Assembly (NCBI GenBank): GCA_963736075.1
Contig: CAVTNW010000013.1
Coordinates: 57,913-121,912 of the forward strand
Length of the DNA: 64,000 nt
DNA from: an uncultured Alphaproteobacteria bacterium
GTDB taxonomy: Bacteria; Pseudomonadota; Alphaproteobacteria; Rhizobiales; Xanthobacteraceae
Direction: 5' to 3'
Under the pieces are notes generated by a model. It searched no databases. It had not been told where the DNA came from and saw only the letters and a program-made list of their open reading frames with translations. Of the stretch, positions 2,438-39,080 are shown one piece after another (position 1 is the stretch's first letter; the number at the start of each line of letters is the position of its first letter). The position numbers and the translations under genes are program-made.

Positions 2438-2494
2438 TTGCCAGATTACGGCATGATCCGTCAGGCTGACTCTCCGGACGATCCCACACTCAAT

Positions 2495-2604: not shown

Positions 2605-2649
2605 GCGGAGAGCGCGATTGCGCCGGGCAGAAAAGGACGACAGATCTCC

Positions 2650-3492: not shown

Positions 3493-3528
3493 GCCCACTC
3501 TGCCCTCGTCGCCATTCCCCGATGCGGC

Positions 3529-4683: not shown

Positions 4684-4829
4684 TGTGTTTCCTGGAGGAT
4701 GCGCAGCATCATCAACTGCGTCTGGCAGGGCCGTCTGATATCATGCCAAAGGGGGTTGGTCCTATCACCACAGAGGACGATCGCTCCCTTGAACGCGCCG
4801 GCGATCAGCCCGGCCAAGCAGGATCTGCC

Positions 4830-6062: not shown

Positions 6063-6070
6063 TCGGGCTG

Positions 6071-7183: not shown

Positions 7184-7194
7184 CGATGGTCTTT

Positions 7195-7683
7195 CTATGA
7201 TCGCGAGGCAAGCCGGCGCGCCGGATTTCCCGCATAGGTGCCGGCCGCGGTGATGTCTCCCGTCACGACCGCGCCCGCGCCGATGACCACGTCGTCGACG
7301 ATGCGCACCGGCAGAATGGTGGCATTGGAACCGATCGAAACCCGGTTGCCGATCACGGTCTTGCCCCACAATTCCTTGCGTCCGCCGGCAGGGCCGCCGG
7401 TCGCAAAGGTGTCGTTGATGAACATCACGCCATGGCCGACAAAACAGTCGTCGCCGATTGTCACCAGTTCGCAGATGAAGGAATGCGACTGCACCCGGGT
7501 GCGGGCACCGATCATCGCGCCCTTTTGAATTTCCGTGAAAGGCCCAATGAAACAGTCATCGCCGATTTTGCAGCCGTAGAGATTGCACGGTTCGATCACC
7601 CTCACCCGAGCGCCGAATTCGACGTCTCGCAGGCTGACATGGTCGACATCGGGCTTATTCACGGCGTCACCCCGAGCCGGCAC
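7195..7683 (-). CDS. left-handed beta-helix (hexapeptide-repeat) sugar N-acetyltransferase (WbpD-like)
   Basis: Hexapeptide repeats (IGDDCFIGPFTEI, IGARTRV, IGSNATI, IGAGAVV). An alternative GTG start at 7662 forms a GTGA overlap with the upstream stop (7659-7661). Confidence 0.75.
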   Translation of the reverse strand: MPARGDAVNKPDVDHVSLRDVEFGARVRVIEPCNLYGCKIGDDCFIGPFTEIQKGAMIGARTRVQSHSFICELVTIGDDCFVGHGVMFINDTFATGGPAGGRKELWGKTVIGNRVSIGSNATILPVRIVDDVVIGAGAVVTGDITAAGTYAGNPARRLASRS

Positions 7684-8720
7684 AGGCGCGGAGTGAAGTG
7701 CAGGGGAACTTCCAGGCCCGTCTCGATCAATTCATACAGCGCGGAAATCAGTTCGAGGCTTTTGCGGCCTTCAAGTCCATCCACCAGCGCGGCGTGCTGG
7801 TGCACCAGACAATCGATCACATGCTGATAATACGCCTGATGGCCGAAGCCATAGACGTTCGGCGGGTTGACGGAAAACTTCTCCCGCACTTCCTTGTCGC
7901 TTGGAAGCTCGTCGACGAAGTTCCAGTGCCTGATCTCGTTGACCGCGAAGCCCGCGATTTCCACCATGCCCTTTTCTCCGAGGACCGACAGCGACCCCTC
8001 GACATCCCTCGGGCGCGCCGCCGTCGTCGCCTCGATGATGCCGAGCGCGCCGTTGCGAAATTTCAGGGTTGCCACCGCAGTATCCTCGGCTTCGATCCTC
8101 GCCAGTGCCGTGATGGCGCGGGCATGAACGCTGACGACGTCGCCGAAGAACCACTCCAGCATATCGACATGGTGGCTGGCCTGGTTGGAGAGCACGCCGC
8201 CATCATAGGCCCAGGTGCCGCGCCAGTCATCCTGATCGTAATAGGCCTGGTCCCGGCACCAGCGCACCCGAACGGTGCCGAGAATGAGACGGCCGAACCG
8301 GCCGGCTTCAAGAGCCTCGCGCGCCTTGACGACCGGAACGTTGAAGCGGTTCTGCTTGACCACGAACAGCTTGACGCCGGCCAGATCGCAGGCGCGCATC
8401 ATGTCGTCGGCATCCCCGAGCCGCAGCGCCATCGGCTTTTCGACCACGACGTGCTTGCCGGCCCGCGCGCAGGCAATGACGTGCTGCGGGTGCATGCCGC
8501 TCGGGGTCAGGACCGCGACGGCGTCGATGTCCTTGCGGGCCAGGAAATCGCCGATGTCGTCATGCGCGGCAACGCCGTATTTCGAGGCGATGGCATCGGC
8601 GCGCGAGCGGATGGGATCGCAGACCGCCGTGAGCCTAGCCCCGTCGATGTGGTTGCCGCCGAGCAAATCGGAATGCCGCTTCGCGATGCGCCCGCAGCCG
8701 AGCAGCCCAAATCTGATCAT
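7659..8720 (-). CDS. Gfo/Idh/MocA-family NAD-dependent sugar oxidoreductase (WbpB/GnnA-like)
   Basis: N-terminal Rossmann motif MIRFGLLGCGRIAKRH. 353 aa. Forms a trio with the acetyltransferase and DegT aminotransferase downstream. Confidence 0.8.
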   Translation of the reverse strand: MIRFGLLGCGRIAKRHSDLLGGNHIDGARLTAVCDPIRSRADAIASKYGVAAHDDIGDFLARKDIDAVAVLTPSGMHPQHVIACARAGKHVVVEKPMALRLGDADDMMRACDLAGVKLFVVKQNRFNVPVVKAREALEAGRFGRLILGTVRVRWCRDQAYYDQDDWRGTWAYDGGVLSNQASHHVDMLEWFFGDVVSVHARAITALARIEAEDTAVATLKFRNGALGIIEATTAARPRDVEGSLSVLGEKGMVEIAGFAVNEIRHWNFVDELPSDKEVREKFSVNPPNVYGFGHQAYYQHVIDCLVHQHAALVDGLEGRKSLELISALYELIETGLEVPLHFTPRLCRLGVTP

Positions 8721-8901: not shown

Positions 8902-10077
8902 TTATCGGCGCTGCGTCTCGATCGCGCGCGCGACGACGCGCGCAAAATCGGTGGCGAAGGCCGCGACACGCTGACCGAGATCCGGCAGCAGACCGCGGAT
9001 GGCCGGCGGCTCCGCGGCCTGAGCCGCCTCCCAGAGCAGATCGGCCAAGGTCGCGGCATCGTCGAGGCCGAAATAGCGCGCGCGACCCCCGGTCTGTTCG
9101 CGATGGACGTCGATATCGGAAAGGATCATGGGAACGCCGAACGACTTGGCCTCTTCCACAGTTGTGCTCCAGCCCTCGAAGCGAGAAGGATTAATGAGCG
9201 CCACCGAGGCCCGCAGCAGGGCGTAGACATGGTCCAGCGGAATCATGCCGAGATAGCGGAAATTCGACGCGACGCCGCGGTCTTCGAGCCGGCACATCAG
9301 ATGATCGAAATAGTCTGCTTCACGGGGATCTTGCGGGCTGCCGGAGGCCGCGACGACGACATCCTGCCCGCGTTGTTTCAGGATCGTCAGCGCCTCGACC
9401 ACGACCTGATGGTTCTTGTGCCGCCAGAACTGGTTCGGCAGATAGAAGTATCGCGCCGGCAAGCTGTATTTCGCCAAGACCTCGGCCGCATCCGCGGTCA
9501 GCAGTTCGGCCGCGGGCTGAGTGGCGAAGCGGACCACAGCGACGTCGTTGCAAAATCCCGGATAGAATCGTCGATAGTCGGCGAGAGCGCTTTCGCTGCT
9601 CAGCATGATCTGCCGGCCGGACATGATCTGGGCGCGAAAACCGAGATCGCGCCGCCAGCGCGCGATCGGCGAAAACAGCTGCGGCAGTCGGCGATGCTGA
9701 AAATCCGGAAACCATGCGATGGCCGGAAAAGGCAGGCGCCAGCCGAAAAAACGCGCGTTCTCGACCACCACGTCGATGCCTTTGGCCTGAAACTCGGCTG
9801 CCGCCGGCCGGTCAAGCCCAAACGCGATGGCACCGATCAGACCCGAACGCCGGCGATCAAAGGCCTGCGAGCGCGCAACTTCGACAGCGGGAATGTGCGA
9901 GAGCTCCGCAAGTTCGGCGGGATCGTCCGTCGTCCCGGCAAATACCACCGGCGCGAATTCGCCGGGACAGTAGCGGCCCAGCGCAGCAAACAGGTTGCGC
10001 TGGTAGTTGTAACCCCCGGCCCAAAGGCTTCGCGGTACCGCGGTGAATGCGACACGCAGCGGGAGTTGGGCCGTCAA
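8902..10077 (-). CDS. glycosyltransferase, GT-B fold (family 1/GT4-like)
   Basis: 391 aa. The C-terminal region has the EGWSTTVEEAKSFGVPMILSD motif typical of the EX7E region of GT4 enzymes. The TTG start at 10077 forms a TTGA overlap with the upstream stop. Confidence 0.8.
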   Translation of the reverse strand: MTAQLPLRVAFTAVPRSLWAGGYNYQRNLFAALGRYCPGEFAPVVFAGTTDDPAELAELSHIPAVEVARSQAFDRRRSGLIGAIAFGLDRPAAAEFQAKGIDVVVENARFFGWRLPFPAIAWFPDFQHRRLPQLFSPIARWRRDLGFRAQIMSGRQIMLSSESALADYRRFYPGFCNDVAVVRFATQPAAELLTADAAEVLAKYSLPARYFYLPNQFWRHKNHQVVVEALTILKQRGQDVVVAASGSPQDPREADYFDHLMCRLEDRGVASNFRYLGMIPLDHVYALLRASVALINPSRFEGWSTTVEEAKSFGVPMILSDIDVHREQTGGRARYFGLDDAATLADLLWEAAQAAEPPAIRGLLPDLGQRVAAFATDFARVVARAIETQRR

Positions 10078-11003
10078 CGAATGTGATCCTTGAACCAGCT
10101 GACATAATCAGCAACGCCCTGCTCGATCGGAATCCGCCATTCGAACGGCAGCTGCTGCAGTGTTGTGCCGTCGGCCAAGAGGCTGAACGGGTCCCCGGCC
10201 CGGACCAAACCTGAATAACGCACGGACGTTTCGGAGCCCCAGTGCTCGATCAGCAGGCTCGCGAATTCGGCCACACGGATGCCACGGCCCGATCCGCCAT
10301 TGATGACGCGAAACTTCTCCTCCGGCGGGAACTCCCCGATTGTGGTCAATAGCCGGACAGCATCGCGCACATCGGTCCAATCGCGTATTTCCTGGCCCGT
10401 CCCGCCCAGCACCAGCGTCGACTGGCCCTGCTTTAGCCTGCAACAGATGTCCCACGGCAGTTGCTTGCGAAGCTGCGGCCCGTAAACCGAGAACAATCGC
10501 GCCACCGTGCTGCGAAGGCCGAAGCTTACCGCATAGCTGCTGCACAGTTGCTCCATCATCAGCTTGTGCTGACCATATGGCGACATCGGCCTCGGTACCG
10601 CCTGCTCGGGAATGGGACCGCAATGATCCGCACCATAGACCGCCGCACTCGAAACCGCGATGACATGGCATTCCGGGGCCGCGCCGCGAAGCCATTCCAG
10701 CAATCGCGCCGTGCTGACGACCGTACGGGAAAAATCTTCCAACGGCTGCGCGATCGATAACCCGACCGAGGATCCGCCGGCGAGATGAAAGACCTTCGAC
10801 GGCAGCCCATGCGCGGCGGCCAACGCTTTCAGATTAGCCGCATCGATCTCGCCATTGAGCCAGGTTCTCAGGCCGAGACGCGGCCAATCAAAATCCGCAA
10901 TGGCACCATGCCCGATGCCGTGAACGACATGACCGGCATCCGCCAACTCGCGGGCGAGGTGATGGCCGATGAAACCATTGGCGCCGGTGATCCAAACGGT
11001 CAT
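10074..11003 (-). CDS. NAD-dependent nucleotide-sugar epimerase/dehydratase (extended SDR)
   Basis: Starts at ATG 11003 (MTVWITGANGFIGHHL, a GxxGxxG motif) in an ATGA overlap with the upstream stop. YGQHK provides the YxxxK motif. Confidence 0.85.
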   Translation of the reverse strand: MTVWITGANGFIGHHLARELADAGHVVHGIGHGAIADFDWPRLGLRTWLNGEIDAANLKALAAAHGLPSKVFHLAGGSSVGLSIAQPLEDFSRTVVSTARLLEWLRGAAPECHVIAVSSAAVYGADHCGPIPEQAVPRPMSPYGQHKLMMEQLCSSYAVSFGLRSTVARLFSVYGPQLRKQLPWDICCRLKQGQSTLVLGGTGQEIRDWTDVRDAVRLLTTIGEFPPEEKFRVINGGSGRGIRVAEFASLLIEHWGSETSVRYSGLVRAGDPFSLLADGTTLQQLPFEWRIPIEQGVADYVSWFKDHIR

Positions 11004-11857
11004 GACGCCGCCTTGCGGCCGACGAAGGAATAAAGTCTTCCCGGCCGGTTGTCGAAGTGGCCGGCCAGCGACAGCAGCGATTGAAACACCCGGTCGGAAC
11101 AAAGCGCAAGCCGCAGCAATGGCTTCGCAGGTATTCGTTGCGATACCTTTTCGATGATGGCGTCGCGCAGACTTTCGATGGTATAGGGAAACAGATTGAT
11201 CGGGCTCTGCAACGGCGGCAAAACTTCCAGGGAAGCAAAACCCGCGGCTTTCAGCGCGCCTATATAACGATCGAGCAGAAATGCATGCTCGCCGCCGTAC
11301 AGGTGATGCAATGGATGTCGATCAAGGAACCGGGAGAGATCGGCTTCCCTGCTGATCACATGCTCACGCGCCGCAACCAGTATGCCACCTGGTGCGAGCA
11401 CGCGATGCATCTCGCAACAAGCCCGATTTAGATCGCTCATGTGATGCAGGACCGCCCGGGCAAAGACGACATCGAACGCGCCGTCGGCAAACGGCAGCCG
11501 TTCGGAAACCTCCTCGACAACGCGAATAGGCAGCGCCGCTTCGGCCGCCAGCGCACGGATCGCGCCGGCGCCGACGATCGCACTTGGATCCGGCTCGAGC
11601 GCCGTCACCTGGAAGCCCTCCTGCGCCAGCGCATAGCTCGCAATGCCGCGCCCGGCCCCGACATCGAGCGCTTGGCCGGTCCGACCGCGAAGAAATTCGC
11701 AAATGGCCTGCCATTCGTCGCTACGGCGATACCGCTCGGCCGCTGCGATCAATGGATCATCATAAAACGCGTCGAGCACAAGCTGGCTGCGTGCTGGCTG
11801 ATTGCGAAGCCAGAGCACGGCATTTTCCCAGCTTTCAAAGTGCGCGGCTTCCACCAT
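11000..11857 (-). CDS. class I SAM-dependent methyltransferase
   Basis: SAM-binding motif I LDVGAGRGIAS and downstream FDVVFARAVLHH. 285 aa. Confidence 0.8.
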   Translation of the reverse strand: MVEAAHFESWENAVLWLRNQPARSQLVLDAFYDDPLIAAAERYRRSDEWQAICEFLRGRTGQALDVGAGRGIASYALAQEGFQVTALEPDPSAIVGAGAIRALAAEAALPIRVVEEVSERLPFADGAFDVVFARAVLHHMSDLNRACCEMHRVLAPGGILVAAREHVISREADLSRFLDRHPLHHLYGGEHAFLLDRYIGALKAAGFASLEVLPPLQSPINLFPYTIESLRDAIIEKVSQRIPAKPLLRLALCSDRVFQSLLSLAGHFDNRPGRLYSFVGRKAAS

Positions 11858-11887
11858 CGATATCCTTTAAACGGGAGGGAGAGCCCG

Positions 11888-12955
11888 TTAGGCCAGTTCC
11901 TGGAATCTCGCCCATTGCCGTTCCTTGCTATAGTGATCCTTCACCATGGCACGACCCGCTTTTGCGATGGACTCTGCCCAAGAAGCGTTTTTGACGAGGC
12001 GCTCGATCAATTCGGAGATCTGAGCAATAGACGAATATGTCACCATGGTCTCGCCATCGACGAACCCTTCGGGGTAGCGTCCGGCATCCGTCAGCAGAAC
12101 CGTGCCGCAACCAGTGGCTTCGAAGCATCGCATATTGCCGCGATCGAGCCCCGCCATATCCACCGCCCCGTTAAACGCGATACGCGCGCTTGACAAGGCG
12201 CTATATGCATCCCGGCCATAGATCGGTCCAGCCCGGACGGCACGGATTTCCCATGGATGCCGGTAAGCCCCAAGCCCCGGAACAAAGGGCAAAAAGTTAG
12301 CCAGTCGGGTCAGACGCGAATCCTCCAGATGAAAACGCATATCGATGCCGGACATTGATGCCACTGCCCTCAACGCCTCGGCACGCCTGGCGTGGTGACG
12401 TGAAAACCCGCCGATAAAAATCAGGTCAAGTTCATTGCCCCGCGACTCGGCGTAAGTATCCATCATTGGATCATGTGCCGGGAAAAAATACCCGGTCCGG
12501 CAGCCCTTTTGCCGCCAATCCTCGAGAATGGACGGAAAATTGCAGACGACCAGATCGTATCTCGATAGATCGGCGTTGCCCGAAGGGGCTGCACGCCAGC
12601 AGATCGTTCTCTTCACGCAACCCGGCAGCCTGGCCAAAAACGAGCTGCCATATCGCATTGGATCAAGATTATAAAACACCTCGCTGCGATGATGCTCTAT
12701 CTGCGCAAGCAGGATTGTTTCCAGACTGTCGGATTTCAGCCCCTGTTCGTGGGCCCAAAGCCCCTGCAGGTTTTCATCATCGCCATTGGTGTAGAATGCA
12801 TCCGGACTGTCAGACAGCACCGGAAGCAGGATATGCGATGCGGCAAACCGCGTAGCGAGAAACCTGGCGCGCTCACTGGCAAAGCTCTGGTGTTCGGCAC
12901 CGTAGCCGTGGGCACGGAAACCAAGCGACAGGCCGTTGTTTTGAAATACGCGCAA
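11888..12955 (-). CDS. putative glycosyltransferase (CgeB-like / Glyco_trans_1_2-type C-terminal domain)
   Basis: 355 aa with a TTG start. The C-terminal half (NMRCFEATGCGTVLLTD...YSS...ELIERL) resembles GT1-type C-terminal domains. It is the lowest-GC gene of the cluster. Confidence 0.45.
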   Translation of the reverse strand: MRVFQNNGLSLGFRAHGYGAEHQSFASERARFLATRFAASHILLPVLSDSPDAFYTNGDDENLQGLWAHEQGLKSDSLETILLAQIEHHRSEVFYNLDPMRYGSSFLARLPGCVKRTICWRAAPSGNADLSRYDLVVCNFPSILEDWRQKGCRTGYFFPAHDPMMDTYAESRGNELDLIFIGGFSRHHARRAEALRAVASMSGIDMRFHLEDSRLTRLANFLPFVPGLGAYRHPWEIRAVRAGPIYGRDAYSALSSARIAFNGAVDMAGLDRGNMRCFEATGCGTVLLTDAGRYPEGFVDGETMVTYSSIAQISELIERLVKNASWAESIAKAGRAMVKDHYSKERQWARFQELA

Positions 12956-12962
12956 CTGCGAT

Positions 12963-13556
12963 TCAGCCTGTTAGGTTGGCATCGGACGCCGGAAGCAGCG
13001 AGCGCACGACCGCCGCCGGATTGCCCACCGCCACCGTATATGGCGGTATATCACGCGTGACCACCGAGCATGCACCGATAACGGCTCCCTCGCCGATCGT
13101 AACTCCCTTCAGGATACTTGCGTTGAATCCAACCCAGGCCTTGTTTCCGATGACAACAGGCGCATGCGCGACGTGTTTCCAGTTTTTTCGCTTCTGATGC
13201 CAGTCCTGGACATCGGTGCAGCGCTCCGCCCATTCAATACTGTGGGAGTCGTGATCCACGACCGTGATGCCCCAGGACATGATGACGTCATCGCCGATAA
13301 CAATACTTCGGTAGCAGACGAGATCGCTGCGCCCGACGAAGGTGCGGCTGCCAATTTGGATTTTGCCGCCGCTCTCCTCAAAAGAGATATTCGCATGGAT
13401 GATGGAATCGTCCCCAACCGCGAGCAGATTGCTTGAAACCTGTTTCAGGCGCCGCCACGCGATGGTCGTCCCGCGACCAATCTGGACCGCCCCCGACCGC
13501 CGGGCGCGCCATCCGAGAATGACGTCGATCAGTGACATCGGGGTCTGTCTTGACAC
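12963..13556 (-). CDS. hexapeptide-repeat acyl/acetyltransferase
   Basis: LbH repeats ([39 protein letters not shown]). GTG start at 13556, with an alternative ATG at 13538. Confidence 0.75.
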
Positions 13557-13557
13557 G

Positions 13558-15393
13558 TCACAACCTCGCCAGCATCCATTTCATATTCAGATAGGGCCAT
13601 AGGCGCCCAACGGTTTCCCAGTCCCATCGCTTCGATGCGGTCAACCGCTCGACGGCCTTGCCCAGGCTCGCCTCGTCAACAAGTTCGGCGAAGGCCGGGA
13701 CATCGCGGTCCATCAGAACGGCCACCCAGCCGGCAAGCGGCCCATTCAGCCATTCCGGCATCGGCGAGTTAAGGCCGACCTTGCGGCGCCCCATGCGAAT
13801 CGCCTCGGGCATCCGCCCCTCCATCGCCCGCCGCGCGACCATCTTGGTATAGCCATCGGAGGACTTGCTGGTCTCCGGAAGCGCCATCGTATAGGTGACG
13901 AGGCGCCAGTCCATGAATGGCATCCGCACCTCCACGCCGTGAGCCATCGAAACCCGATCGAAGTTGCGCAGCAGGGTCGGCAGCACCGTGCCGTGAAACA
14001 TGCGATAGAGGCGCCGGTTCAGCCCGCCCCATTCGCCCGGCAGCGCATCGCCGTCACCAACCAGCTGAAATTCGGCCGGACTGGCGGACAGGCCGCCGCG
14101 GAGGAAATAATGGCCCTCACCCCTCACTGTCATGGCGCGCAGCAGGTCGACGCCTCGCTTCGCCAACGGCGAATTGGAGGCCGCTCCCGCCAGCATGTTT
14201 CGTAGGCGAAAGGCCAAGGATTGGCCTTGCTGACGATAGGCTCCCATCAACTCATCGGCGCCATGACCATCGAGCGAAACCAATACCTTGTTGCGCCTGA
14301 GATCGCGGTAGAGCTGCCACGCGGCGCTCGGCAGCGATATATAGACGTCGTCATTGTCTTGAAGGATCCGCTCAAGATCTGTCAGCGCATCGTTTGGGCC
14401 GATTTCGACGAAGGCCGGATCGACCTCCGCCCAGGCGGCGGCCTCCTCCGCCATCGGCCGCTCGTCGTTCGACGCCCCGGGGAAGGTGGCGACAAAGGCG
14501 TGGCGCCAGGCGGCGCTGTCGCGCGGACCCATCCCGGCCTTGGCGTGCGCCGCCATTTCACAGATCACGGCCGACGAATCGAAGCCCCCGGACAGGCAGG
14601 TTCCGATCGGCACGTCGCTGCGCATCCGCAAGGCGACCGCATCGCGGAACAGCTCACCGAAATGCTCGACCTGTTCGGCCTCGCTGTGAGGCACCTGCGG
14701 CAGATGGTCCAGGGTACACCACCAGCGCCGGATTTCGAGCCGGCCGCCCCGCAACCACATGCAATGGCCGCCCTGCAGCCTGCGCACCTCGCGGCACAGC
14801 GTGCGTTCGCTGCCTTCGACCCCGAAGGCATCGAGCATCAACCGGCGCGCCACATCGACATCGATCGATGGCCTGATCAATCCGCTCTGCATCAGAGCAC
14901 GCTGCTCCGAGGCAAACACCAGCCTCTGCGGCGACCACGCATAAAGCAGCGGCTTGATGCCGAACCGGTCCCGCGCCAGAAACAATTCCCCACTCTCGGT
15001 GTCGTAGATTGCCAGTGCCCACATGCCGTTGAAACGCGGCAACATTCCTTCCTGCCATATCCGCCAGGCCGCCAGAATGACCTCGGTATCGGATTGCGTC
15101 CTGAAGGTCGCACCCAGCGACTCGAGTTCACGGCGAAGTTCAAGGAAATTGTAGATTTCGCCATTGAAGACGATGACGTGACGGCCGTCGGCCGACATCA
15201 TGGGCTGGTGGCCACCCGGGCCTGGATCGATGATGGCGAGCCGGCGGTGCCCGAGGGCCACGTTCCCTTCCGGGCTGTACCAGTGTCCGGCACCGTCAGG
15301 GCCGCGATGCGCCAACAGATCCGTCAAGCGCTGGATATCAGCCGGCTCAGCGCTCGCGCCGGCAATGCTGACGATGCCTGCGATGCCGCACAT
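13558..15393 (-). CDS. asparagine synthase (glutamine-hydrolysing)-family amidotransferase (AsnB/WbpG/WbpS-like)
   Basis: Starts MCGIAGIV, with an N-terminal nucleophile Cys2. The synthetase domain has an SGGFDSS PP-loop. 611 aa, with zero gap to the flippase stop. Confidence 0.9.
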
Positions 15394-16944
15394 CTAAAGG
15401 ACCTTCCCGGGCAGGAAGCGTGCTGCGATCACCCGCATATCCCGCCAGCAGGTCCCGCCATAAGGCCCAATGCCAGAAACAGCGACGACCACGATGAAGA
15501 TGATGCCGGCTGACAGACCATAGGAGCCGACCACCAGCCACCAATGCGGCGCCTGGTCGAACAATCGCTCGCCGACGACGTGGCGCAAGGCGATCGCGGT
15601 GACGATGCCCGTGGCAAGCGGCAGCAGGACAAAATGGGCAACCCGCGGCCACATGTCCGCCAAGACAAAGCTTTGCCGCAGCAGCAACATGCTGACAATG
15701 ATTTGCGCGATCATGCCGAGACCGGCGCTCCAGCCCGCCGCCTGCCAGCCAAAGCGAGGCAGCGCCACGGCGCTGGTGGCAAGCGTGACGGCCGCGGTGA
15801 CCAGCGCGCTCAAGGCGGAGGAGCGTGACCGGCCGTTGGCCAGCAGGTAATACACCAGGACGTTCGAGGCACATCCAAGCATTCCTGCGACCGCCAGCAC
15901 GACCAGCAGCCCCTGGGTCTCGACGGCAACCTCCCTCCCGGTCCAAACCTGAAGCAGCGGGCCGGCGACGACGACGAGGGCACCCAGCGCGCTCGCTGCC
16001 ACGACGTTCAGCACCCAGGACGAGCGAAACAGCAGGTCGGCCAGCCGATCGCTGGGTTCCTTCTGCAGCGAACTGAAAAACGGAAACAGGATTTCGCCGA
16101 TCTTCAGGATGCCGATATACATGGCTTCTTCGAGCCGCTGGGCGATGGTGTAGTAGCCGACGAATTGCGGCGCGAGAAATGCGCCCAGCAGGTAGCGGTC
16201 GGCCTGGCCCGCGATCAGGCCGCCACCCTGAGCGGCGAACTGCCAAGCCCCCAGGCGGATCAGGCCACGAAGTGGCCCGCGGTGCAGCCAGGGCGGTGAC
16301 ATCCATTCACCGACGCGATGGCGCGAAAGCGCGAATGATACCAGGAGCCCTGCCGAAAGGCCCAGCGCCTGACAGCCCAGAAAGGTCGAAGCCTGTGGCC
16401 AACGCGGTATCAGGACGAGCATCGCCGACATTGAAATGATCGCGCTCACGATGCTGATCGAAGCCAACCGCGCATAGTCCTGGCGGGCGGCAAAAAGCGC
16501 CAGGAAGACCCCGGAGGTACATTGGCACAGCCATCCAACCGCGCCGAGAACAAACGCCAGGTCCAGATCCCCCGCCAGTTCGCCATCCAGGTTGAACACA
16601 TGTCGGGCAAGCGGCGGACCGGCAAGCGAAAGCAGCATGGCGATCGGCAGACCTCCCGCAACCGCCAGCAACAAAGCCGTCGCAAAGGTGCGGCGCGCTT
16701 CCTCTTGTTCATCCGGTGCCAGCCGGCAAGCGAGCTCCCGTGTCGCCGACAATCCGAGGGAGTTGCTGAACGCCAATGCGGGAGCAATACAGGCGGTCAC
16801 CAACCCGGCAATTCCGAACACGCCGGCCCCGAGCCGGAACAGCACGAAAGGAAGAATCAATACGTTCAATCCCACGCCGGCGAGAAAGGCGCTCGCATTC
16901 CATGCGGAGTTTGCCAGCAGATGACTGCTTTTTGCTTCTGCCAT
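15394..16944 (-). CDS. polysaccharide/O-antigen flippase (Wzx-like, MOP superfamily)
   Basis: 516-aa polytopic membrane protein with roughly 12-14 hydrophobic segments. First gene of the minus-strand cluster, starting at ATG 16944. Confidence 0.75.
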   Translation of the reverse strand: MAEAKSSHLLANSAWNASAFLAGVGLNVLILPFVLFRLGAGVFGIAGLVTACIAPALAFSNSLGLSATRELACRLAPDEQEEARRTFATALLLAVAGGLPIAMLLSLAGPPLARHVFNLDGELAGDLDLAFVLGAVGWLCQCTSGVFLALFAARQDYARLASISIVSAIISMSAMLVLIPRWPQASTFLGCQALGLSAGLLVSFALSRHRVGEWMSPPWLHRGPLRGLIRLGAWQFAAQGGGLIAGQADRYLLGAFLAPQFVGYYTIAQRLEEAMYIGILKIGEILFPFFSSLQKEPSDRLADLLFRSSWVLNVVAASALGALVVVAGPLLQVWTGREVAVETQGLLVVLAVAGMLGCASNVLVYYLLANGRSRSSALSALVTAAVTLATSAVALPRFGWQAAGWSAGLGMIAQIIVSMLLLRQSFVLADMWPRVAHFVLLPLATGIVTAIALRHVVGERLFDQAPHWWLVVGSYGLSAGIIFIVVVAVSGIGPYGGTCWRDMRVIAARFLPGKVL

Positions 16945-17188
16945 TCAACCAACAGATTGCATCACGGCCTGCCCCGACAAGGCTGCGAACGATAGCCCCC
17001 GTGCTCCGCCCGGCAGCATCCCGCCGGAAAGCTTGCGGCCACCGTGGCCTCAGGCAAACGCGGGCTGGATCCGATCATGAGTCCTTCCTACAACACCACG
17101 CGTTCGCACCTGCTGGACATGGGTCGTGGTGGCCAATACCCGTCACAGCCTTATTGCGCCGTGGCAGATCAGACAAGGGCCTCGATCC

Positions 17189-18632
17189 ATGCAATGGAAT
17201 CGCTTGCATTTGAGGGCTAATTTGACGAACTCAGGGCCCTTATTAACCATCAAGGACAGGCTGACCCACTTGCTCGCGCGCGCCGCCTCTTGCGACATTA
17301 CCCCGCGGGACCGTCCGGTCCGGCTGGCGGGCTATGCTTCGCGCCAAACCCCGGCTTCGATCGTGCTCGACCCGATCGAGATTTCGGTCGTTTGGCTGGA
17401 GTGCGCCGCGCAGCGATGCCTGATCTTCAGTTTCGATCTCATGATCGTGGGGAGCGAGCTTCAGACCATGATCATGACCAGGCTGCAACCGCTTGGGTTC
17501 GCAGCCGGAGAGATCGTTCTTCTGGCCTCGCATACCCACTACGCGCCAGCCACCGATCGGGCCTGCGCGCGTCTTGGGATCCCGGACGTTCAATTCGTTG
17601 ACCAGCTGGCCGCTGCCGCGGAAGATCTGGTGCGGCAAATGCTTGGGGCGCACCCCTTGGACATCAGTTGGGAAGTCTTTCAGGGCCATCTTGAAGCATT
17701 CCATCAACCGGCGCCGCAACTGGCCCTTTCCCACCATTGGACGCACCTATGGGTGGAGGCTCAGAAGCGTCAGCATGGCACCGAACCCTTCGGGCCCCCG
17801 GGACGAACTGGCAACCGTCGTGCTGTTACGTAAATTAGACGACGGGCAGGTACTCGCTGCGCTCTGGCATTACACCTGCCATCCGACCGCCGTTGTTCCG
17901 GAAAACGTCATCAGTGCCGATTACCCCGGCGCCGTGCGAGCTGCGATGCGCCAGCGATTTGGTGAAATTCCCTGCGTGTTCGTGCAGGGATTTTGCGGCG
18001 ATATCCGGCCCAACATCCGCGTTTCGCAGCCCATCGGTTGGCGCGAGCGTATGCGGAGAGCCTTTCGAACGATCGTCTCAGGTCCTTCCTTTGCAAGACC
18101 CTCGCCCGAGGACTGGATGCGCTGGAGCAAAGGTCTGGCGAGGGCGGTGTGCGACATCGCGCAGGGCAGCCCCCGCAGCGTGTTTTCGCCCAAAAGCCTT
18201 CGAACCGGCTCGGCCGCAACTGCTCTCAGCAGCTTCTTTGCCGGCGACACGCCAGACAAACCGCTGGCGGCAGTGGTCATTGCCATTGGCGAGGAGTTGG
18301 AAATCGTGGCGTTGTCAGCCGAAGCCTGCGTGGGATGGCAGGGTATCCTCGATCAAGCCGTCCCGGTCCGACCTGGAACGATCCGGCTTTATGCGGGCTA
18401 TCTGGGGGCGCTGTTCGGCTACCTGCCCACCGCCGCGCAGGTTCCGGAAGGCGGTTACGAAGTAGAGGGGTTTCAACCGTTGTTTGGCCTGTCGGGCCGC
18501 TTCCTCGGTGATCAGATTGGTCCCGCGATCGGGAAATGCGTCAGGAGCGCATTTGAGAATCCGCGGCAGGCCAGCGCGCACGATCGAACGGATTCCGTCG
18601 CCCGAGCCATGATGAGACAGCAGGATACCTGA
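17189..18632 (+). pseudogene. neutral-ceramidase-like amidohydrolase, apparent +1 frameshift near 17640-17700
   Basis: The N-terminal part is in frame 2 (…DITPRD…LASHTHYAP…). The remainder is in frame 0 (…HSINRR…HYTCHPT…DYPG…GFCGDIRPN…). The motifs resemble the neutral/alkaline ceramidase N-terminal domain. The true start is uncertain, because the first ~25 codons after ATG 17189 are AT-rich. Confidence 0.5.
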
Positions 18633-20077
18633 TGACCAGCACGCCGCTCGCGAGCCGTAGTTTTGGCGTGGACGACCAGATCGCATTTGCGCGGTTGTCG
18701 TTCGATTGGAATCCGATCCATCAGGATCCCCGCTTCGCACGGCGTACCCAGGTCGGATCGCCCATCGTGCATGGGATTCACGCCCTTGTCTGGGCGGCGA
18801 ACGCCGTGCTGCGGTCCCTTCCCTGCAAGGTCCTCCACATACGCGCCAGATTCCTGCAGCCGCTCTACCTCGACGAAACCGCATCCGTCAGGATTCGCAA
18901 GCGAACCGAGAACAGCATCGAACTCGATGTGGTCGCGGCAAATGTGGTGGTCGCACAGATCAGATTGTCCTGCGAACCCGGAACAGTCGTCGCGCCAGAC
19001 ATGCCGTTGGCGACGTCAACGCCGGTTCGACTGGTACAGCCCGCCGATCTGCGCTTCGAGCAGCTCGCGGGTCAGGCCGGCGCGGTTGCGACCACCGATG
19101 CGGATGTAACGTCGCTATTTCCGGCGCTCGCGGACACGATCGGTGCTTTCGCCGTCAAGGCGCTGCTGGCAACCTCTTACATCGTCGGCATGGCCTGCCC
19201 CGGGCTTCACTCGCTGTTTGCCGGTCTCGACATCCATTTCACCCCGGACAACGGTCGCAGCAATACGCTGACCTATGCGGTAACGAAGGTGGACCCGCGG
19301 TTTCGTTCCCTGCAGATCGCGGTTTTGGGCTCCGGCATCGCCGGAAAGCTTGAGGCTTTTGCACGTCCCGCCCCGCCGGCCCAGCCCGGGATGGCCGAAA
19401 TCGTTCCGCGCGTGGCAGCCCGCCCATTTGCCGGACAGAGATCACTCGTGATCGGCGGCTCGCGCGGCCTCGGCGAGGTCACGGCGAAGATCGTCGCCGC
19501 AGGCGGCGGAAGCGCGGTGATCACCTACCATGAAAGCGGCGATGACGCCGAGCGGGTCGCTCGCGATATCCGGCAGGCCGGCGGCCAATGCGAGATCCTG
19601 CGTTACGACGCGCTTAAGCCGGCCGCCGCGCAACTGCAGACCCTGGACGCGGTCGACTGCGCCTATTACTTCGCGACCCCCCGGATCTTTCAACGCAAGT
19701 CGATGCTGTATGAGCCTCAGGCGCTTCGCACTTTTCTTAGCTATTATGCGGACGGCTTCTACGAGCTGTGCACGGCGCTGCGCCGGGACGGCGCCGGTAA
19801 GCTCGCCGTGTTCTATCCTTCGACGATGGCGATCGAGGAAGGCGTCAGCGGCACGGCGGAATATGCCATGGCCAAGATGGCCGGCGAAATCCTGGCCAAT
19901 CACCTCAACGAATTCTCAAGCAACATCTTTGTCCTCTGCCGCCGCCTGCCCCGGATCCTGACCGATCAGACCGCGACCGTCGGTGTTGCCAGCGCCGCCA
20001 ACGCGTTGGACGTGATGCTGCCGATTGTATATGAGCTGCAGCAGTCGGCCCGGCCCAATCCGGAGCCACGCAGCTGA
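18632..20077 (+). CDS. MaoC-type (R)-hydratase/dehydratase double-hotdog fused to SDR ketoreductase-like domain
   Basis: Hydratase motif FDWNPIH (18701-18721). SDR glycine motif IGGSRGLGE and YAMAK YxxxK (19862-19876). The ATG overlaps the upstream stop (cctgATGAcc). Confidence 0.75.
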   Translation: MTSTPLASRSFGVDDQIAFARLSFDWNPIHQDPRFARRTQVGSPIVHGIHALVWAANAVLRSLPCKVLHIRARFLQPLYLDETASVRIRKRTENSIELDVVAANVVVAQIRLSCEPGTVVAPDMPLATSTPVRLVQPADLRFEQLAGQAGAVATTDADVTSLFPALADTIGAFAVKALLATSYIVGMACPGLHSLFAGLDIHFTPDNGRSNTLTYAVTKVDPRFRSLQIAVLGSGIAGKLEAFARPAPPAQPGMAEIVPRVAARPFAGQRSLVIGGSRGLGEVTAKIVAAGGGSAVITYHESGDDAERVARDIRQAGGQCEILRYDALKPAAAQLQTLDAVDCAYYFATPRIFQRKSMLYEPQALRTFLSYYADGFYELCTALRRDGAGKLAVFYPSTMAIEEGVSGTAEYAMAKMAGEILANHLNEFSSNIFVLCRRLPRILTDQTATVGVASAANALDVMLPIVYELQQSARPNPEPRS

Positions 20078-20127
20078 CCCGCCAGACCACTCATCCCCCA
20101 TCGATAGATTGGACTACATCACATATC

Positions 20128-21036
20128 ATGTCTCGCGCCGTCCGCAGCACTGTCAAGCGCCTCGCCCAGAAGCTGCTGGGGCAAAAGGACGTGCGCGGTT
20201 TGCTGCGCCGGCAAAAACTCAAGATTGCAAAAACCCTCTACCGGCGTCCGGTTGCGATCGCGGAGCTGCGCCAGCAGCTGATTGATTTGGGGGTAACGCG
20301 CGGGCGAACCCTCTGGGTCCAGTCGTCCTGGAATGAATTTTATAATGTCGGCTTGCGCCCCAGCGAAATGATCGACCTGCTGCGCGACTTGCTTGGTCCA
20401 GGCGGTACGCTGGCGATGCCGGCGTTTCCGATCGATGCAAATCCCGACAAGGTTTTCCTGGTCGACCGGGCGCCGGTATACACCGGCTTGCTGTGCGAGG
20501 TCTTTCGTCGCTCGCCCGAGATCCGCCGCAGCATCCACCTCAGTTCTTCGGTATGTGCGGTCGGTCCCGGCGCCGACTTCCTGGTCAGGGACCACCATCA
20601 CACCCTCATGCCCTGGGGGAGGGATAGCCCGTTCTGCCGGCTCGGCGAACTCGATGGGCGAATGCTCGGCCTTGGCGCCGGCTTCAATTTCATGACGCCG
20701 CTGCACGCCGCGGAATGTCTGCTTTATGATGAGGTGCCGTTCTTCCGGCAGGTGTTTGACGGCACCGTAAGATACCGCTGGAAAACCGCCGCCGGCGAGA
20801 CCGGAGAGCATGAATATAGGCGGCGGACAGGCGATATAAGACCGCAGCGGCTGCGACGCTATTTCGGTCCGGACATCTGCACCGATGCGAAATTATCGAA
20901 TCTGCGCATCCTGGCCGCGGATGCCAAGCCCTTCATCGAGCGCGCGGTCGAGCTTGGTCGCGGCGGCATTACCATGTATATCCAGCCGATTCCGAGGCCT
21001 GAGCTTTTCAACCCTTTCAATGGATCTGTCGACTGA
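20128..21036 (+). CDS. AAC(3)-family (aminoglycoside 3-N-acetyltransferase-like) N-acyltransferase
   Basis: 302 aa. The motif GRTLWVQSSWNEF...GPGGTLAMPAFP matches the AAC(3)/Antibiotic_NAT N-terminal signature as I remember it. Confidence 0.65.
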   Translation: MSRAVRSTVKRLAQKLLGQKDVRGLLRRQKLKIAKTLYRRPVAIAELRQQLIDLGVTRGRTLWVQSSWNEFYNVGLRPSEMIDLLRDLLGPGGTLAMPAFPIDANPDKVFLVDRAPVYTGLLCEVFRRSPEIRRSIHLSSSVCAVGPGADFLVRDHHHTLMPWGRDSPFCRLGELDGRMLGLGAGFNFMTPLHAAECLLYDEVPFFRQVFDGTVRYRWKTAAGETGEHEYRRRTGDIRPQRLRRYFGPDICTDAKLSNLRILAADAKPFIERAVELGRGGITMYIQPIPRPELFNPFNGSVD

Positions 21037-21302
21037 TGGCAAACGCGTCTGAAGCGCCGACCTCGCCCGATGGCGTGCTCGCCCGGGTACAGGAGGTTTT
21101 CCGCGCCGAGCTCGACGACCAAGACCTGGTGATTGCGCCTGAAACAAACCAGAAGAACCTCAGCGCCTGGGACAGCCTGGCCCATATCCGGCTGGTCAGC
21201 GGCATCGAGAATGAGTTCGATATTCAATTCAATCTCAGCGAAATCGAACGGATTACTTCGGTGCGCCAGTTCGTTCAGCTGATCGAGGAACGCGTGCGGT
21301 GA
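21036..21302 (+). CDS. free-standing acyl carrier protein
   Basis: 88 aa. Phosphopantetheine site WDSLAHIRLVSGIENEF, with Ser47 at 21174-21176. The start overlaps the upstream stop by 1 nt (TGATG). Confidence 0.8.
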   Translation: MANASEAPTSPDGVLARVQEVFRAELDDQDLVIAPETNQKNLSAWDSLAHIRLVSGIENEFDIQFNLSEIERITSVRQFVQLIEERVR

Positions 21303-23273
21303 GTGAGGCGCTGTCAGCGCTCGCGATGAGACCGCCCGTGCAAGCGCTGCCCTGGCTGCCCCGCCCGGCCGGAAAATTCCGCGACCACATCGCATCTCTG
21401 CCCTCAGAGCCTCTGCAAGCGCTGCTTGATCTGCAGTCGCTGGCGCAGGCGGCCTGGAGCGAAGTCGATCTTCGTCAGCTCGGACGAAAGATCAAAACTT
21501 TACTCACGTCGGCACCCGCGAGCCTGGCTGCGGAAGCCCGGCAGCGCGGGCTAACGCAGGTGCGGCTCCTGGTGGTGTCGGCGAGCACCGCCTCCCATCT
21601 TCCGGATGCCCTGATCGGTACCGCCCTCCGTTTCGGCTTTCTGCTCGACGTCACCGATCGCGGAGTACGAGGAGCCGGAGCCCTGGCTGGCGCGGAACCG
21701 CGATGCGCTTCAACAGAACCCTCCGGATTTCGTGCTGCTGGCTTCCGACCACCGCATGCTGACATTGAGATCGCCACTCGGAGACGCGGCCGCCGCCGAG
21801 CAGACCATCGAAGCCGCGATCGCCAGGGCCATGCGCCTCGCCGAGGTGGCGGGCGCAGCGAGCGGACATCAGGTCATTTTGCAGACGCTCGCCGATGACC
21901 CCGATCGCGTTCAGTTCAACATGGATCTTGGCCTGCCGGGCAGCCCGCGCTTTCTGATCCATGAGTTCAACGCCCGCCTCGCGCGGCGTGCGCAACAGCA
22001 GTCGCGGCTCGTGCTGGACGTCAACGCGCTGGCCAGTCTGGTCGGAACCGCCGCATGGTCGGCCGGCCGCTATGGGTACGCCGCGAAATACCCATTTTCG
22101 ACCGCCATGATCCCGCTCTATGCCGACCACGTCATGCGGATCGTCGCAGCCCAGATGGGCCGTTCGCGACGGGTGCTGGTGATGGACCTCGACAATACGA
22201 TATGGGGCGGCATCGTCGGCGACGACGGCATGGAAGGTCTTGTGCTCGGCAACGGCAGCCCGTTGGGCGAAGTTTATGCGGCGCTCCAGCGGATGGCCCT
22301 GTCGCTGAAGGAGCGCGGAATTATTCTGTGCGTGTCGTCGAAGAACGACGAGGCGATCGCGCTCGATGCATTTCGCAACCATCCCGAAATGATCCTTAAG
22401 GAAGAGGATATCGTCGCCTTCCGGGTCAACTGGGACGACAAGGCCGCCAACATCAAGGCGATCGCCGACGCCATCGGCCTCGGTCTCGATTCTTTTGTCT
22501 TCCTCGATGACAATCCCGCCGAACGCAAGCGCGTCCGCGAGGCGCTGCCCGCGGTGGCCGTTCCCGAACTGCCTGGGGATCCCAGCGACTGGCTCTCGGT
22601 GTTGCAGTCCGCGGGCTATTTCGAGCAGGCCGGCTTTTCGAAAGAGGACCAGCTCCGGGCCGGTTTCTACAAAGCCAACGCCCTGCGGGCCGCGCAGATG
22701 GAACGGATCGGCGATCATGACGATTATCTGCGCTCGCTGGCGATGACGCTGTCGATTGTCCCGTTCGACAGCGCCGGCCGCAAGCGGATCGCCCAATTGA
22801 TCTCCAAATCGAACCAGTTCAATCTGACGACCCGCCGCTACAGCGAAGCCGAGATCGCGGCGATGGAGTCCAATCCCGGTATTCTCGCCGTCCAGGGGCG
22901 ACTTCTGGATATCTTCGGCGATAACGGAATGATTTCGGCAGTGATCTGCCGTCAGGCCGGCCAACGCTGGGAGATCGATACCTGGATCATGTCTTGTCGC
23001 GTGCTTGGCCGGCGTGTGGAGGAGGCCATGCTGCAATACCTGGTCGAGCAGGCTCGCCGAAGGGGCATTACTACCCTGGTCGGCCGCTACATCCCGACCG
23101 CCAAGAATGGCCTGGTGCGCGATCACTTCAGCCGACTTGGCTTCGTCCAGACTGACAGTCAAAACGGCGAAACCACCTGGGAGCTTGCCGTCGGCGGCTA
23201 TGATGAAAAACAACTCCCAATGAAGGTGGAATCGCAAGCCCGCGGCAAACTTGCCGCTGCCGGCGGCGCCTGA
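21299..23273 (+). pseudogene. FkbH-like HAD-IIIC phosphatase/acyl-loader with C-terminal GNAT domain, apparent +1 frameshift at 21615-21665
   Basis: The N-terminal ~120 codons are in frame 2, starting at GTG 21299 in a GTGA overlap with the ACP stop. The rest is in frame 0. HAD motifs DLDNT (22185-22199), SSKND and FLDDNPAER. GNAT-like C-terminus (WIMSCRVLGRRVEEAML). Confidence 0.75.
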
Positions 23274-23311
23274 AGCGCGTGGGGCTGAGTTCGCTCGCCA
23301 AGGCACACCCG

Positions 23312-24106
23312 ATGTTTGATCGCTTCATCGGCATCGATTATTCGGGCGCAGAGACGCCCCGTTCGAGTTTGCCCGGTTTGCGCGTCTATCTCGCCGAAGC
23401 GGATGGAACGCCGGTCGAAGTGCCACCTCCGCCCTCGGCCCGCAAGTATTGGACACGACGCGGCATCGCCGAATGGCTGGTGAATAAGCTCAGCGAGAGC
23501 GCCACGACCCTGGTCGGCATCGACCATGGCTTCTCTTTTCCGCTGCGATATTTCGAAGTGCACTGGCTTGAGCCCGACTGGCCGGCTTTTCTCGACGATT
23601 TTCAGCACCATTGGCCAACCGACCAGGACATTTATGTCGATTTCGTCCGGGACGGCTTACATGGAAATGGTGCCGCGCGCATGGGCAACGCCCGCTGGCG
23701 TCGGCTGACCGAACAGCGCGCCGGCACCGCCAAGTCGGTTTTCCATTTCGACGTCCAGGGTCAGGTGGCCAAATCAACCCATGCCGGCATTCCCTGGCTG
23801 CGCTACATGCGCCAACGGCTCCGGGGACGAGTGCATTTCTGGCCCTTCGAAGGCTGGGACATTCCCAAGGGAACCTCTGCCATCGCCGAGGTCTATCCGG
23901 CGCTCTGGAATAAAGGTTTCGTCAATGAAGGCCGCACCAGCGACCAGCATGACGCTTTCAGCATCGCCGCGGGGCTGTCGCGCGCCGACCACGACGGCAC
24001 ATTGGCAGCGCTGCTGAGACCCGACCTGACGCCGCCAGAGCGGACGCTGGCGCAGCTCGAAGGTTGGATATTGGGCGTCCCGGGAAAGGCTCGGGTGAAA
24101 TCCTAA
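23312..24106 (+). CDS. hypothetical protein, DUF429-like (predicted RNase H-fold)
   Basis: Starts MFDRFIGIDYSGA. Later motifs AEVYPALW and DQHDAFSIAAGL match the pattern I associate with DUF429. An alternative GTG start lies at 23279. Confidence 0.4.
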   Translation: MFDRFIGIDYSGAETPRSSLPGLRVYLAEADGTPVEVPPPPSARKYWTRRGIAEWLVNKLSESATTLVGIDHGFSFPLRYFEVHWLEPDWPAFLDDFQHHWPTDQDIYVDFVRDGLHGNGAARMGNARWRRLTEQRAGTAKSVFHFDVQGQVAKSTHAGIPWLRYMRQRLRGRVHFWPFEGWDIPKGTSAIAEVYPALWNKGFVNEGRTSDQHDAFSIAAGLSRADHDGTLAALLRPDLTPPERTLAQLEGWILGVPGKARVKS

Positions 24107-39044: not shown

Positions 39045-39080
39045 CTTGGTTGCCTCCCGAGCTTGGCTTGTATGGATGGG

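Follow-up and report, generated by a model that had tools for sequence, protein, structure and literature searches.

Enzymes of the FkbH type draw on 1,3-bisphosphoglycerate: a phosphoglyceryl-S-enzyme is formed, the phosphate is removed, and the glyceryl group is passed to an acyl carrier protein (ACP), a C-terminal cysteine carrying the glyceryl intermediate in case of OzmB (PMC9057759). FkbH-type loaders of polyketide synthases (PKS) give a D-lactyl-ACP product (PMC7901079), and lactoyl- as well as pyruvoyl-ACP starters derive from 1,3-bisphosphoglycerate (PMC6162330). A literature search for FkbH together with glycan or polysaccharide returned only the FlaGrab paper on Campylobacter jejuni as relevant, all other hits being unrelated natural-product papers. 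A C. jejuni strain without the fkbH-domain gene cj1302 lacks dimethylglyceroyl-pseudaminic acid glycans (PMC7099621), and the aminopeptidase-like Cj1295, which was hypothesised to remove the 5-N-acetyl group, is needed for Pse5(2,3-di-O-methylglyceroyl)7Ac (PMC3068675). Here, we describe an operon with an FkbH-like gene on a 64,000-nt stretch of a Rhizobiales genome (uncultured Alphaproteobacteria bacterium, assembly GCA_963736075.1, contig CAVTNW010000013.1, positions 57,913 to 121,912), which is called the window in the following and to which all coordinates refer. With moderate confidence, we read its genes g1 to g5 as a glycan-tailoring cassette that would bring a C3 hydroxyacyl donor from glycolysis onto an amino sugar in the adjacent O-antigen or exopolysaccharide. 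The initial annotation of this DNA, made from the sequence alone, knew of no characterised pathway with such a gene combination; this has to be qualified by the close conceptual precedent in C. jejuni (PMC3068675, PMC7099621).

The order g1-g2-g3-g4-g5 is kept in L001, a metagenome contig sharing 99.1% identity with 22 kb of the window, and in six other Bradyrhizobium-type loci: L002 (Bradyrhizobium, LT670817), L003, L004, L083 (B. lablabi), L084 (Bradyrhizobium sp. 44) and L085. The same overlapping stops and starts are found in these loci wherever gene calls exist. In the window they read TGATG at 18630-18634 (g1/g2), TGATG at 21034-21038 (g3/g4) and GTGA at 21299-21302 (g4/g5), at the very positions for which translational coupling had been proposed. 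Flanking genes vary by locus and are glycan genes wherever annotated (L001, L002, L083-L085). The Wzx-type flippase gene of the window (15394..16944, minus strand; Pfam Polysacc_synt) is divergent from g1, as had been annotated, and a flippase-sized membrane-protein gene takes the same divergent position upstream of g1 in L001, L002, L083, L084 and L085. In addition, a DegT aminotransferase is encoded within the 10-kb flanks of L083-L085. Within the operon, g3 is the best conserved protein, with 79-84% identity compared to 66-72% for g1.

The 3' boundary differs from the initial annotation, which had counted six coupled plus-strand genes and described the sixth, g6 (23312..24106, plus strand), as DUF429-like. 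This gene is absent from L002-L004 and L083-L085 and finds no Pfam match at E<=0.01 or even at E<=10. Its sole match is a weak one to the C-terminal part of NCBIfam PRK14495 (38.7 bits, cutoff 596). We rejected g6 as an operon member; since it is missing from the syntenic loci, the unit comprises g1 to g5 only. What follows the cassette on its 3' side varies between loci: L002 carries ERF/YqaJ prophage-like genes there, and in L083 a CoA-transferase gene follows the cassette directly. The counterpart of the latter in the window lies at 45997-47190, and the approximately 22 kb in between hold sugar kinases, an ABC transporter and genes resembling a type II secretion system.

The comparison was extended beyond Bradyrhizobium by means of the MaoC-SDR fusion encoded by g2, whose full-length relatives at E<1e-30 form a family of 1625 clusters at 50% identity. 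A scan with one genome per species gave 80 loci, 52 of which carry a full-length g2 homologue, while 20 loci that match the MaoC part only form a control set. Neighbour genes were taken from family clustering with an overlap filter and from called genes; picking the longest open reading frames (ORFs) was dropped on account of shadow ORFs at high GC. An FkbH gene was found within 10 kb in 41 of the 52 loci and within 3 kb in 34, compared to a single one of the 20 controls. Six of the 11 loci without an FkbH gene have truncated flanks. Hidden Markov models detected an ACP in 34 of the 52 loci, and all three, FkbH, ACP and MaoC-SDR, occur together in 32. These loci stem from Alpha-, Beta- and Gammaproteobacteria, Acidobacteriota, Verrucomicrobiota, Planctomycetota, Nitrospirota, Desulfobacterota, Gemmatimonadota, Omnitrophota and Actinomycetota. 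Synteny across genomes, which had been proposed as a check, is thus borne out: with the gene order kept in six other loci and the core recurring across phyla, the gene set is conserved beyond chance.

The FkbH-like enzyme is encoded by g5 (21299..23273, plus strand), which yields 657 amino acids when read without an extra C at 21654. The protein scores 283 bits against the FkbH family model TIGR01686 (cutoff 146.65), covering profile positions 4-321 of 323, and 62 against HAD-IIIC (cutoff 35.75). The DLDNT motif, encoded at 22185-22199, had been recognised before. Support for the additional GNAT tail was not obtained; TIGR01686 extends over most of this C-terminal region and ends near residue 617 of 657. 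In an alignment of 42 sequences, which includes a PKS-embedded copy, D296, D298 and T300 (DxDxT), S347-K348-N349, K381, D403-D404 and S565-C566-R567 vary little or not at all, being kept in at least 40 of the 42. The N-terminal FkbH_N domain of approximately 290 amino acids is absent from the PKS-embedded copy. BF1531 (3slr), itself uncharacterised, is the only solved relative (1.7e-53).

The neighbouring g4 (21036..21302, plus strand, 88 amino acids) shows the PP-binding domain (PF00550) with 27 bits against 20.8 and the expected DSL serine, whose codon at 21174-21176 would accept the phosphopantetheine; the earlier assignment as a free-standing ACP stands. It reaches 33 bits against the housekeeping model TIGR00517 (cutoff 70.45) and stays below the cutoff in all other AcpP models as well. 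Because it falls below every AcpP equivalog cutoff, g4 is, as judged from these scores, a dedicated ACP and not the housekeeping AcpP. Its start overlaps the stop of g3, and its stop overlaps the start of g5.

It is very probable that g5 loads this ACP. The FkbH-like protein had been named as the only plausible loader on the premise that the window encodes no adenylate-forming enzyme. The premise fails, as a PaaK-like (PaaK/F390-synthetase-like) AMP-binding ORF is located at 4683-6062 on the plus strand; the conclusion stands on synteny. The PaaK-like ORF was considered as a rival loader and rejected: it lies 15 kb from the ACP gene and is absent from L083-L085, and FkbH and ACP genes are adjacent in more than 30 loci. 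In L026 and L032, genes weakly similar to it were observed at a distance of 6-8 kb from the cassette.

For g2 (18632..20077, plus strand, 481 amino acids), a double-hotdog MaoC hydratase fused to an SDR had been proposed, and both parts were recovered. The MaoC_dehydratas domain (PF01575) scores 54.2 bits against 27 (1.4e-14), and the hydratase motif FDWNPIH is present. The adh_short model stays below threshold (23.2, cutoff 26.6), and the YAMAK motif is found. The structure model (predicted local distance difference test, pLDDT, 90) shows two hot-dog units with the helix-in-sheet arrangement (residues 1-113 and 149-244) and a Rossmann domain behind them, and its C-terminal half superposes on FabG-type SDRs with a template modelling (TM) score of approximately 0.7 relative to the targets. 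Among 33 diverse homologues, D25, N27, P28 and H30 as well as GGSRGLG, S397, Y411 and K415 are invariant. Judged by modelled fold and invariant residues, which carry the SDR assignment, g2 thus qualifies as a MaoC-SDR fusion. The invariance of both active sites argues for dehydration and reduction alike.

From these parts, the following route may be drawn, with the FkbH chemistry taken from family knowledge. The enzyme g5 would take 1,3-bisphosphoglycerate, strip the phosphates and hand the glyceryl group to g4 via the conserved cysteine. Glyceryl-ACP is a 2,3-dihydroxyacyl and hence a beta-hydroxyacyl thioester, so that a MaoC dehydratase can act on it without any chain-building enzyme. The MaoC half of g2 would dehydrate it to an enol-pyruvoyl and thus pyruvoyl-ACP, which the SDR half would reduce to lactyl-ACP. 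The initial annotation had proposed the same logic of loading, modification, transfer and deacylation, and the joint occurrence of the core in 32 of the 52 loci is in good agreement with it. Its generic 3-hydroxyacyl step is disfavoured because the operon has no chain-building enzyme, and dehydration and reduction of glyceryl-ACP are preferred. A further tie between g2, g5 and the PKS loaders is provided by L053 (Paenibacillus sp. S150), where a single PKS ORF of 3153 amino acids at 9959-19420 carries MaoC, SDR and FkbH ahead of the first ketosynthase. Its domain order is MaoC(10-98)-SDR(285-464)-FkbH(688-1019)-KS(1225-1595)-DH-KR-MT-ACP, in which KS is the ketosynthase, DH a dehydratase, KR a ketoreductase and MT a methyltransferase domain. 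The first three are fused homologues of g2 and g5 and probably act as lactyl-starter loader of an uncharacterised polyketide.

By analogy with the PKS loaders, we tentatively name lactyl as the product. That the same cassette serves the same target with another group, i.e., L-glyceroyl or hydroxypyruvoyl (C2 inverted or oxidised), pyruvoyl or some other ACP-bound hydroxyacyl, appears unlikely on the present evidence, yet several observations speak for it. The only glycan genetically linked to an FkbH gene bears a glyceroyl derivative (PMC3068675, PMC7099621), and the lactyl product rests on the analogy just named. Moreover, g2 homologues occur with a fatty-acyl-AMP ligase (FAAL) instead of FkbH. 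This is the case in L038, a metagenome-assembled genome of the Pirellulales, with the order DegT - AAC(3)-like - MaoC/SDR - ACP - FAAL at 2400-8436; in L012, FAAL genes are present and FkbH is out of reach. The replacement in L038 implies that the substrate of g2 need not always be glyceryl, and g2-type enzymes may act on other ACP-bound acyl groups, too. On the other side stand the two g2 active sites, both invariant across the family, and the loader of L053, which fits the domain logic given in the literature for lactyl and pyruvoyl starters (PMC6162330, PMC7901079). A further point concerns the gene content in C. jejuni. That locus has a methyltransferase and is not known to have a MaoC-SDR, which would fit a glyceroyl unit that is kept there and changed here.

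The product of g3 (20128..21036, plus strand, 302 amino acids) had been described as AAC(3)-like, which agrees with 101.7 bits against 25 for Antibiotic_NAT (PF02522; 6e-29). The best resistance subfamilies, AAC_3_IV with 85 bits against 420 and AAC_3 with 80 against 270, are far from being reached. An aminoglycoside resistance gene was considered and discarded, g3 lying far below every AAC(3) subfamily cutoff. Sequence matches in the PDB include AAC(3)-IVa (2.7e-20) and FrbF. The segment TPLHAAE of g3 aligns with TTLHLAE of AAC(3)-IVa, in which the mutant structures 6mn4 and 6mn5 have Ala in place of the His, and g3 retains the catalytic His-Glu motif of the family. We lean towards g3 as an acyl-ACP-dependent N-acyltransferase, which would move the acyl group from the ACP onto a sugar amine that is either supplied by the DegT pathway or exposed by deacetylation.

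The donor is the point at which a second explanation has to be weighed, namely that g3 is an ordinary acetyl-CoA sugar N-acetyltransferase and the ACP-bound unit is delivered otherwise, by g1 working in reverse (a ceramidase-type condensation in the synthetic direction) or by an O-acyltransferase encoded elsewhere. To our knowledge, the characterised Antibiotic_NAT enzymes, FrbF included, all use acetyl-CoA, and none is known to work with acyl-ACP. In addition, most loci pair the core with other transferases, i.e., MBOAT in 12, Acyl_transf_3 in five and a GNAT-like protein in four loci, which implies that an AAC(3)-like enzyme is not required for the use of acyl-ACP. An AAC(3)-like gene occurs in 13 loci, the seven of the Bradyrhizobium type as well as L019, L026, L028, L032, L034 and L038. 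Against plain acetylation, it adjoins the ACP gene in at least eight loci of several lineages (L003, L004, L026, L032, L034, L083-L085), and this adjacency persists in L026, L032 and L034 despite a reversed gene order. The translational coupling of g3 and g4 in Bradyrhizobium and the high conservation of g3 noted above point in the same direction. Finally, a hexapeptide N-acetyltransferase for plain acetylation is already encoded in the window. Taken together, these points make an acetyl-CoA-dependent g3 decidedly unlikely. In L028 and L038, the AAC(3)-like gene is located directly downstream of DegT.

The first gene, g1 (17270..18632, plus strand), encodes 453 amino acids once an extra T at 17691 is removed. 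The start had been placed at 17189; we assign it to TTG 17270 according to the equivalent TTG of the L001 orthologue. The ceramidase model PF04734 stays below its gathering score (15.5 bits against 32.1, in the first half of g1). The structure model (pLDDT 71.5, predicted TM score 0.79) matches neutral ceramidases only, with Foldseek E-values of 8e-18 to 7e-17 against 2zws, 2zxc and 4wgk and a TM score of approximately 0.6, in line with the earlier designation as ceramidase-like. Compared to a ceramidase of approximately 650 amino acids, g1 consists of the catalytic domain only and lacks the C-terminal domain, and the target-normalised TM score is approximately 0.43. A family profile finds 2zws with E 3e-4 and aligns SHTHxAP with THTHSGP, LSAE with APAE, and a Tyr-rich C-terminal segment. 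H88, H90, H204, E351 and Y396 are invariant in 23 aligned homologues; by comparison with the ceramidases, these presumably are the zinc-site residues (H-x-H, His, Glu, Tyr). No signal sequence was found by eye, and for this reason the enzyme is placed in the cytoplasm. By its modelled fold, g1 would be a cytoplasmic zinc amidase, a distant relative that is not to be filed as a ceramidase.

In the proposed pathway, g1 would strip an N-acetyl group and expose the sugar amine. This role as deacylase of the acceptor is a possible one, to be taken with caution. Apart from L046, the gene is confined to loci of the Bradyrhizobium type. A PF01522 polysaccharide deacetylase is present in eight loci, among them the AAC(3)-type loci L026, L028 and L032, and its presence instead of g1 in other lineages suggests that such loci repeatedly call for a deacetylase.

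As sequenced, g1 and g5 are each split into two frames, with ORFs 17126-17833 and 17493-18632 for g1, and 21299-21898 and 21732-23273 for g5. Both genes are intact in L001 (453 and 657 amino acids), and P0001 represents an intact 657-amino-acid version of g5 with 99% identity. Compared to L001, the extra T turns CTG into CTTG and the extra C turns CACG into CACCG; skipping one base each rejoins the frames to full-length proteins. Two further single-base insertions against L001, at 31208 and 31550, lie within one ABC permease gene, which gives a total of four frame-breaking insertions in approximately 19 kb of coding sequence within the 22-kb comparison. Apart from the insertions, g1-g5 are undamaged, without stops or deletions. 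The initial annotation had noted two frameshifts and asked whether the operon might be a dead remnant. The frameshifts are real in this sequence, and a decaying operon, with g1 and g5 as true pseudogenes and without formation of an acyl unit in this strain, has in its favour that each of the two genes carries a one-base insertion and that neither insertion lies in a long homopolymer. Such a remnant is improbable given the intact genes in a nearly identical contig, the lack of other damage, and the additional insertions in the permease gene, whose rate suits assembly error better than biology. Because there are four frame-breaking insertions in so short a coding stretch and no other damage, the frameshifts are probably assembly errors rather than decay.

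As to the destination, the acyl unit is likely to end up on a glycan. That an N-lactyl amine, an acylated lipid head group or another small diffusible or lipid molecule is the product is very improbable: FkbH enzymes are known chiefly from secondary metabolism, some related loci adjoin FAAL or PKS genes and ABC transporters (L053, L062, L064), and g1 is related to a lipid amidase, but the annotated Bradyrhizobium-type loci sit among glycan genes and divergent from a flippase-sized gene, most other loci hold glycosyltransferases, DegT, MBOAT or polysaccharide deacetylases, and neither a ketosynthase nor a condensation domain is found in the window.

The glycan-tailoring cassette thus rests, on our side, on the gene set, the conserved catalytic residues, the folds and the synteny, while the acyl-ACP donor of g3, the function of g1 and the nature of the acceptor sugar are inferred. 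Several observations weigh against it. In the sequence at hand, both g1 and g5 carry a frameshift, g1 is restricted in its distribution, and the family of g3 is one of acetyl-CoA users. FAAL takes the place of FkbH in L038, and FAAL genes occur in several other loci (eight in total). In some loci DegT would supply a fresh amine, so that a deacylase is not obviously needed there. Likewise, the hexapeptide N-acetyltransferase and the PaaK-like adenylating enzyme of the window have no role assigned in the proposed scheme. Reports of Bradyrhizobium polysaccharides with an N-lactyl or N-glyceroyl sugar did not come to light, with no search aimed at them.

The polysaccharide cluster that adjoins the operon starts with the flippase gene and runs down to approximately 3.5 kb. 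Behind the flippase gene, it encodes an AsnB-like amidotransferase (13558-15393), the hexapeptide acetyltransferase (12963-13556), glycosyltransferases (11888-12955 and 8902-10077), a methyltransferase (11000-11857), an epimerase/dehydratase (10074-11102), a GFO oxidoreductase (7659-8720), a DegT aminotransferase (6071-7369, minus strand) with the PaaK-like ORF directly beside it, and an AGE-type epimerase (3529-4683). A tblastn search of the window with a ketosynthase query gave no match, so that the earlier statement on missing ketosynthases stands. The one on adenylating enzymes is contradicted by the PaaK-like ORF. The intergenic region that separates g1 from the divergent flippase gene (16945..17269), as read from the sequence, presumably holds promoters for both directions. 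A simple scan for sigma-70 promoters and terminators gave nothing above shuffle expectation, this region included. Further downstream, at 34951-44635, a set resembling type II secretion or type IV pilus genes (a PilN-domain protein, T2SSF, a T2SSE ATPase with MshEN, and a secretin) was observed, which is unrelated to the cassette.

Across the sampled loci, the partners of the core vary. Apart from those mentioned, an AsnB-like amidotransferase accompanies it in 11 loci, glycosyltransferases in many, and Wzx and DegT occur in the neighbourhoods as well. The pairing with MBOAT was observed in several phyla (L005, L006, L008, L013, L020, L023, L035, L036, L047, L049, L051 and L052). These MBOATs are DltB/AlgI-like and stand in place of the AAC(3)-like enzyme, which suggests a Dlt-like O-acylation of an extracytoplasmic polymer with the same C3 unit. 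Another sub-type has the arrangement FkbH - GNAT-like - MaoC/SDR - PF01522 deacetylase (L022, L025, L028, L033); an ACP was not detected in L025, L028 and L033, and the acyl hand-over may differ there. Implementing all facts, the core of FkbH, ACP and MaoC-SDR is a widespread, modular and hitherto uncharacterised unit that links glycan tailoring with PKS lactyl loaders.

A wider reading, which we put forward as speculative, takes this trio as a widespread "glycolysis-to-glycan" donor cassette in more than 10 phyla, which would turn 1,3-bisphosphoglycerate into lactyl-, pyruvoyl- or glyceroyl-ACP for interchangeable transferases acting on surface polysaccharides. AAC(3)-like enzymes would serve N-acylation inside the cell and MBOATs O-acylation outside. 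The trio would then also be a free-standing sibling or ancestor of the trans-acyltransferase (trans-AT) PKS lactyl starters, and g3 the first Antibiotic_NAT enzyme to use acyl-ACP. Serotype, recognition by phages and interactions with a host or symbiont are shaped by the non-acetyl N- and O-acyl groups that O-antigens, capsules and flagellar glycans carry. If the reading is true, FkbH, ACP and MaoC-SDR form a genome signature that predicts C3 hydroxyacyl decorations, and it is explained how such decorations are made without fatty-acid or polyketide machinery. It would connect the tailoring of glycans with the question of where the lactyl starter modules of PKS come from, broaden the donor range of the aminoglycoside-acetyltransferase fold, and provide a testable biochemical model for the dimethylglyceroyl-pseudaminic acid of C. 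jejuni. For Bradyrhizobium, it would mean an undescribed modification of lipopolysaccharide or exopolysaccharide, which could matter in symbiosis.

Among the known systems, the FkbH loading modules of trans-AT PKS, e.g., that of lankacidin, share the set of dehydratase, reductase, FkbH and ACP. Here, the functions reside on separate proteins, no ketosynthase follows, and the acyl group is passed to a transferase in a glycan locus. The cassette would work like such a loader, the first four functions being present, but is not a PKS, as a ketosynthase is absent from the window. Methoxymalonyl-ACP loci (FkbG-K; OzmB, D, E, F, G) likewise combine an FkbH-type glyceryl transferase/phosphatase with a dedicated ACP in a small co-transcribed operon, and they require a 3-hydroxyacyl-CoA dehydrogenase, an acyl-CoA dehydrogenase and an O-methyltransferase (PMC9057759). 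Their product is a PKS extender unit. Since none of the three accessory families is found among g1-g6, this assignment was discarded. Chlorosphaerolactylate was also considered and set aside as a precedent, as its adenylation route starts from pyruvate.

With AAC(3) and FrbF, g3 shares the fold family and the catalytic His-Glu motif; those enzymes transfer an acyl group to the amine of a substrate that is sugar-like or linked to a nucleotide. The difference lies in the position of g3 beside an ACP in a glycan locus, and an acyl-ACP donor would be new for the family.

The order of events resembles that of the rhizobial Nod factor, where NodB deacetylates, the N-acyltransferase NodA re-acylates, and the acyl chain is carried by the dedicated ACP NodF. 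In both cases, an N-acetyl amino sugar would be deacetylated and the freed amine re-acylated from a dedicated ACP. All protein families differ, however, and the Nod factor receives a long fatty acid built by a ketosynthase on a chitin oligomer as acceptor. The Dlt system (DltA, DltC and the MBOAT DltB) uses a small carrier protein to bring an acyl group to a cell-surface polymer. Carrier-protein delivery is the common feature, and 12 of the related loci pair the core with an MBOAT. The window, in contrast, has no MBOAT, its loader is of the FkbH type instead of an adenylating enzyme, and the transfer is predicted to be cytoplasmic and onto nitrogen.

The flagellin-glycan locus of C. jejuni NCTC 11168 differs from the cassette in three respects. 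Its hydrolase is aminopeptidase-like, compared to the ceramidase fold of g1. The glyceroyl skeleton is kept there and O-methylated, with no MaoC-SDR known. A nonulosonic acid on flagellin is modified there instead of a sugar of an O-antigen or exopolysaccharide. The C. jejuni pathway itself is known through genetics and mass spectrometry only. The locus presumably also encodes the AAC(3)-like Cj1296/7 and the ACPs Cj1299 and Cj1304. It is nevertheless the closest precedent: an amino sugar bears a C3 glycerate-type acyl group in place of N-acetyl, the deacetylase is proposed to be a zinc-hydrolase-like protein, and an FkbH-domain gene is part of the locus.

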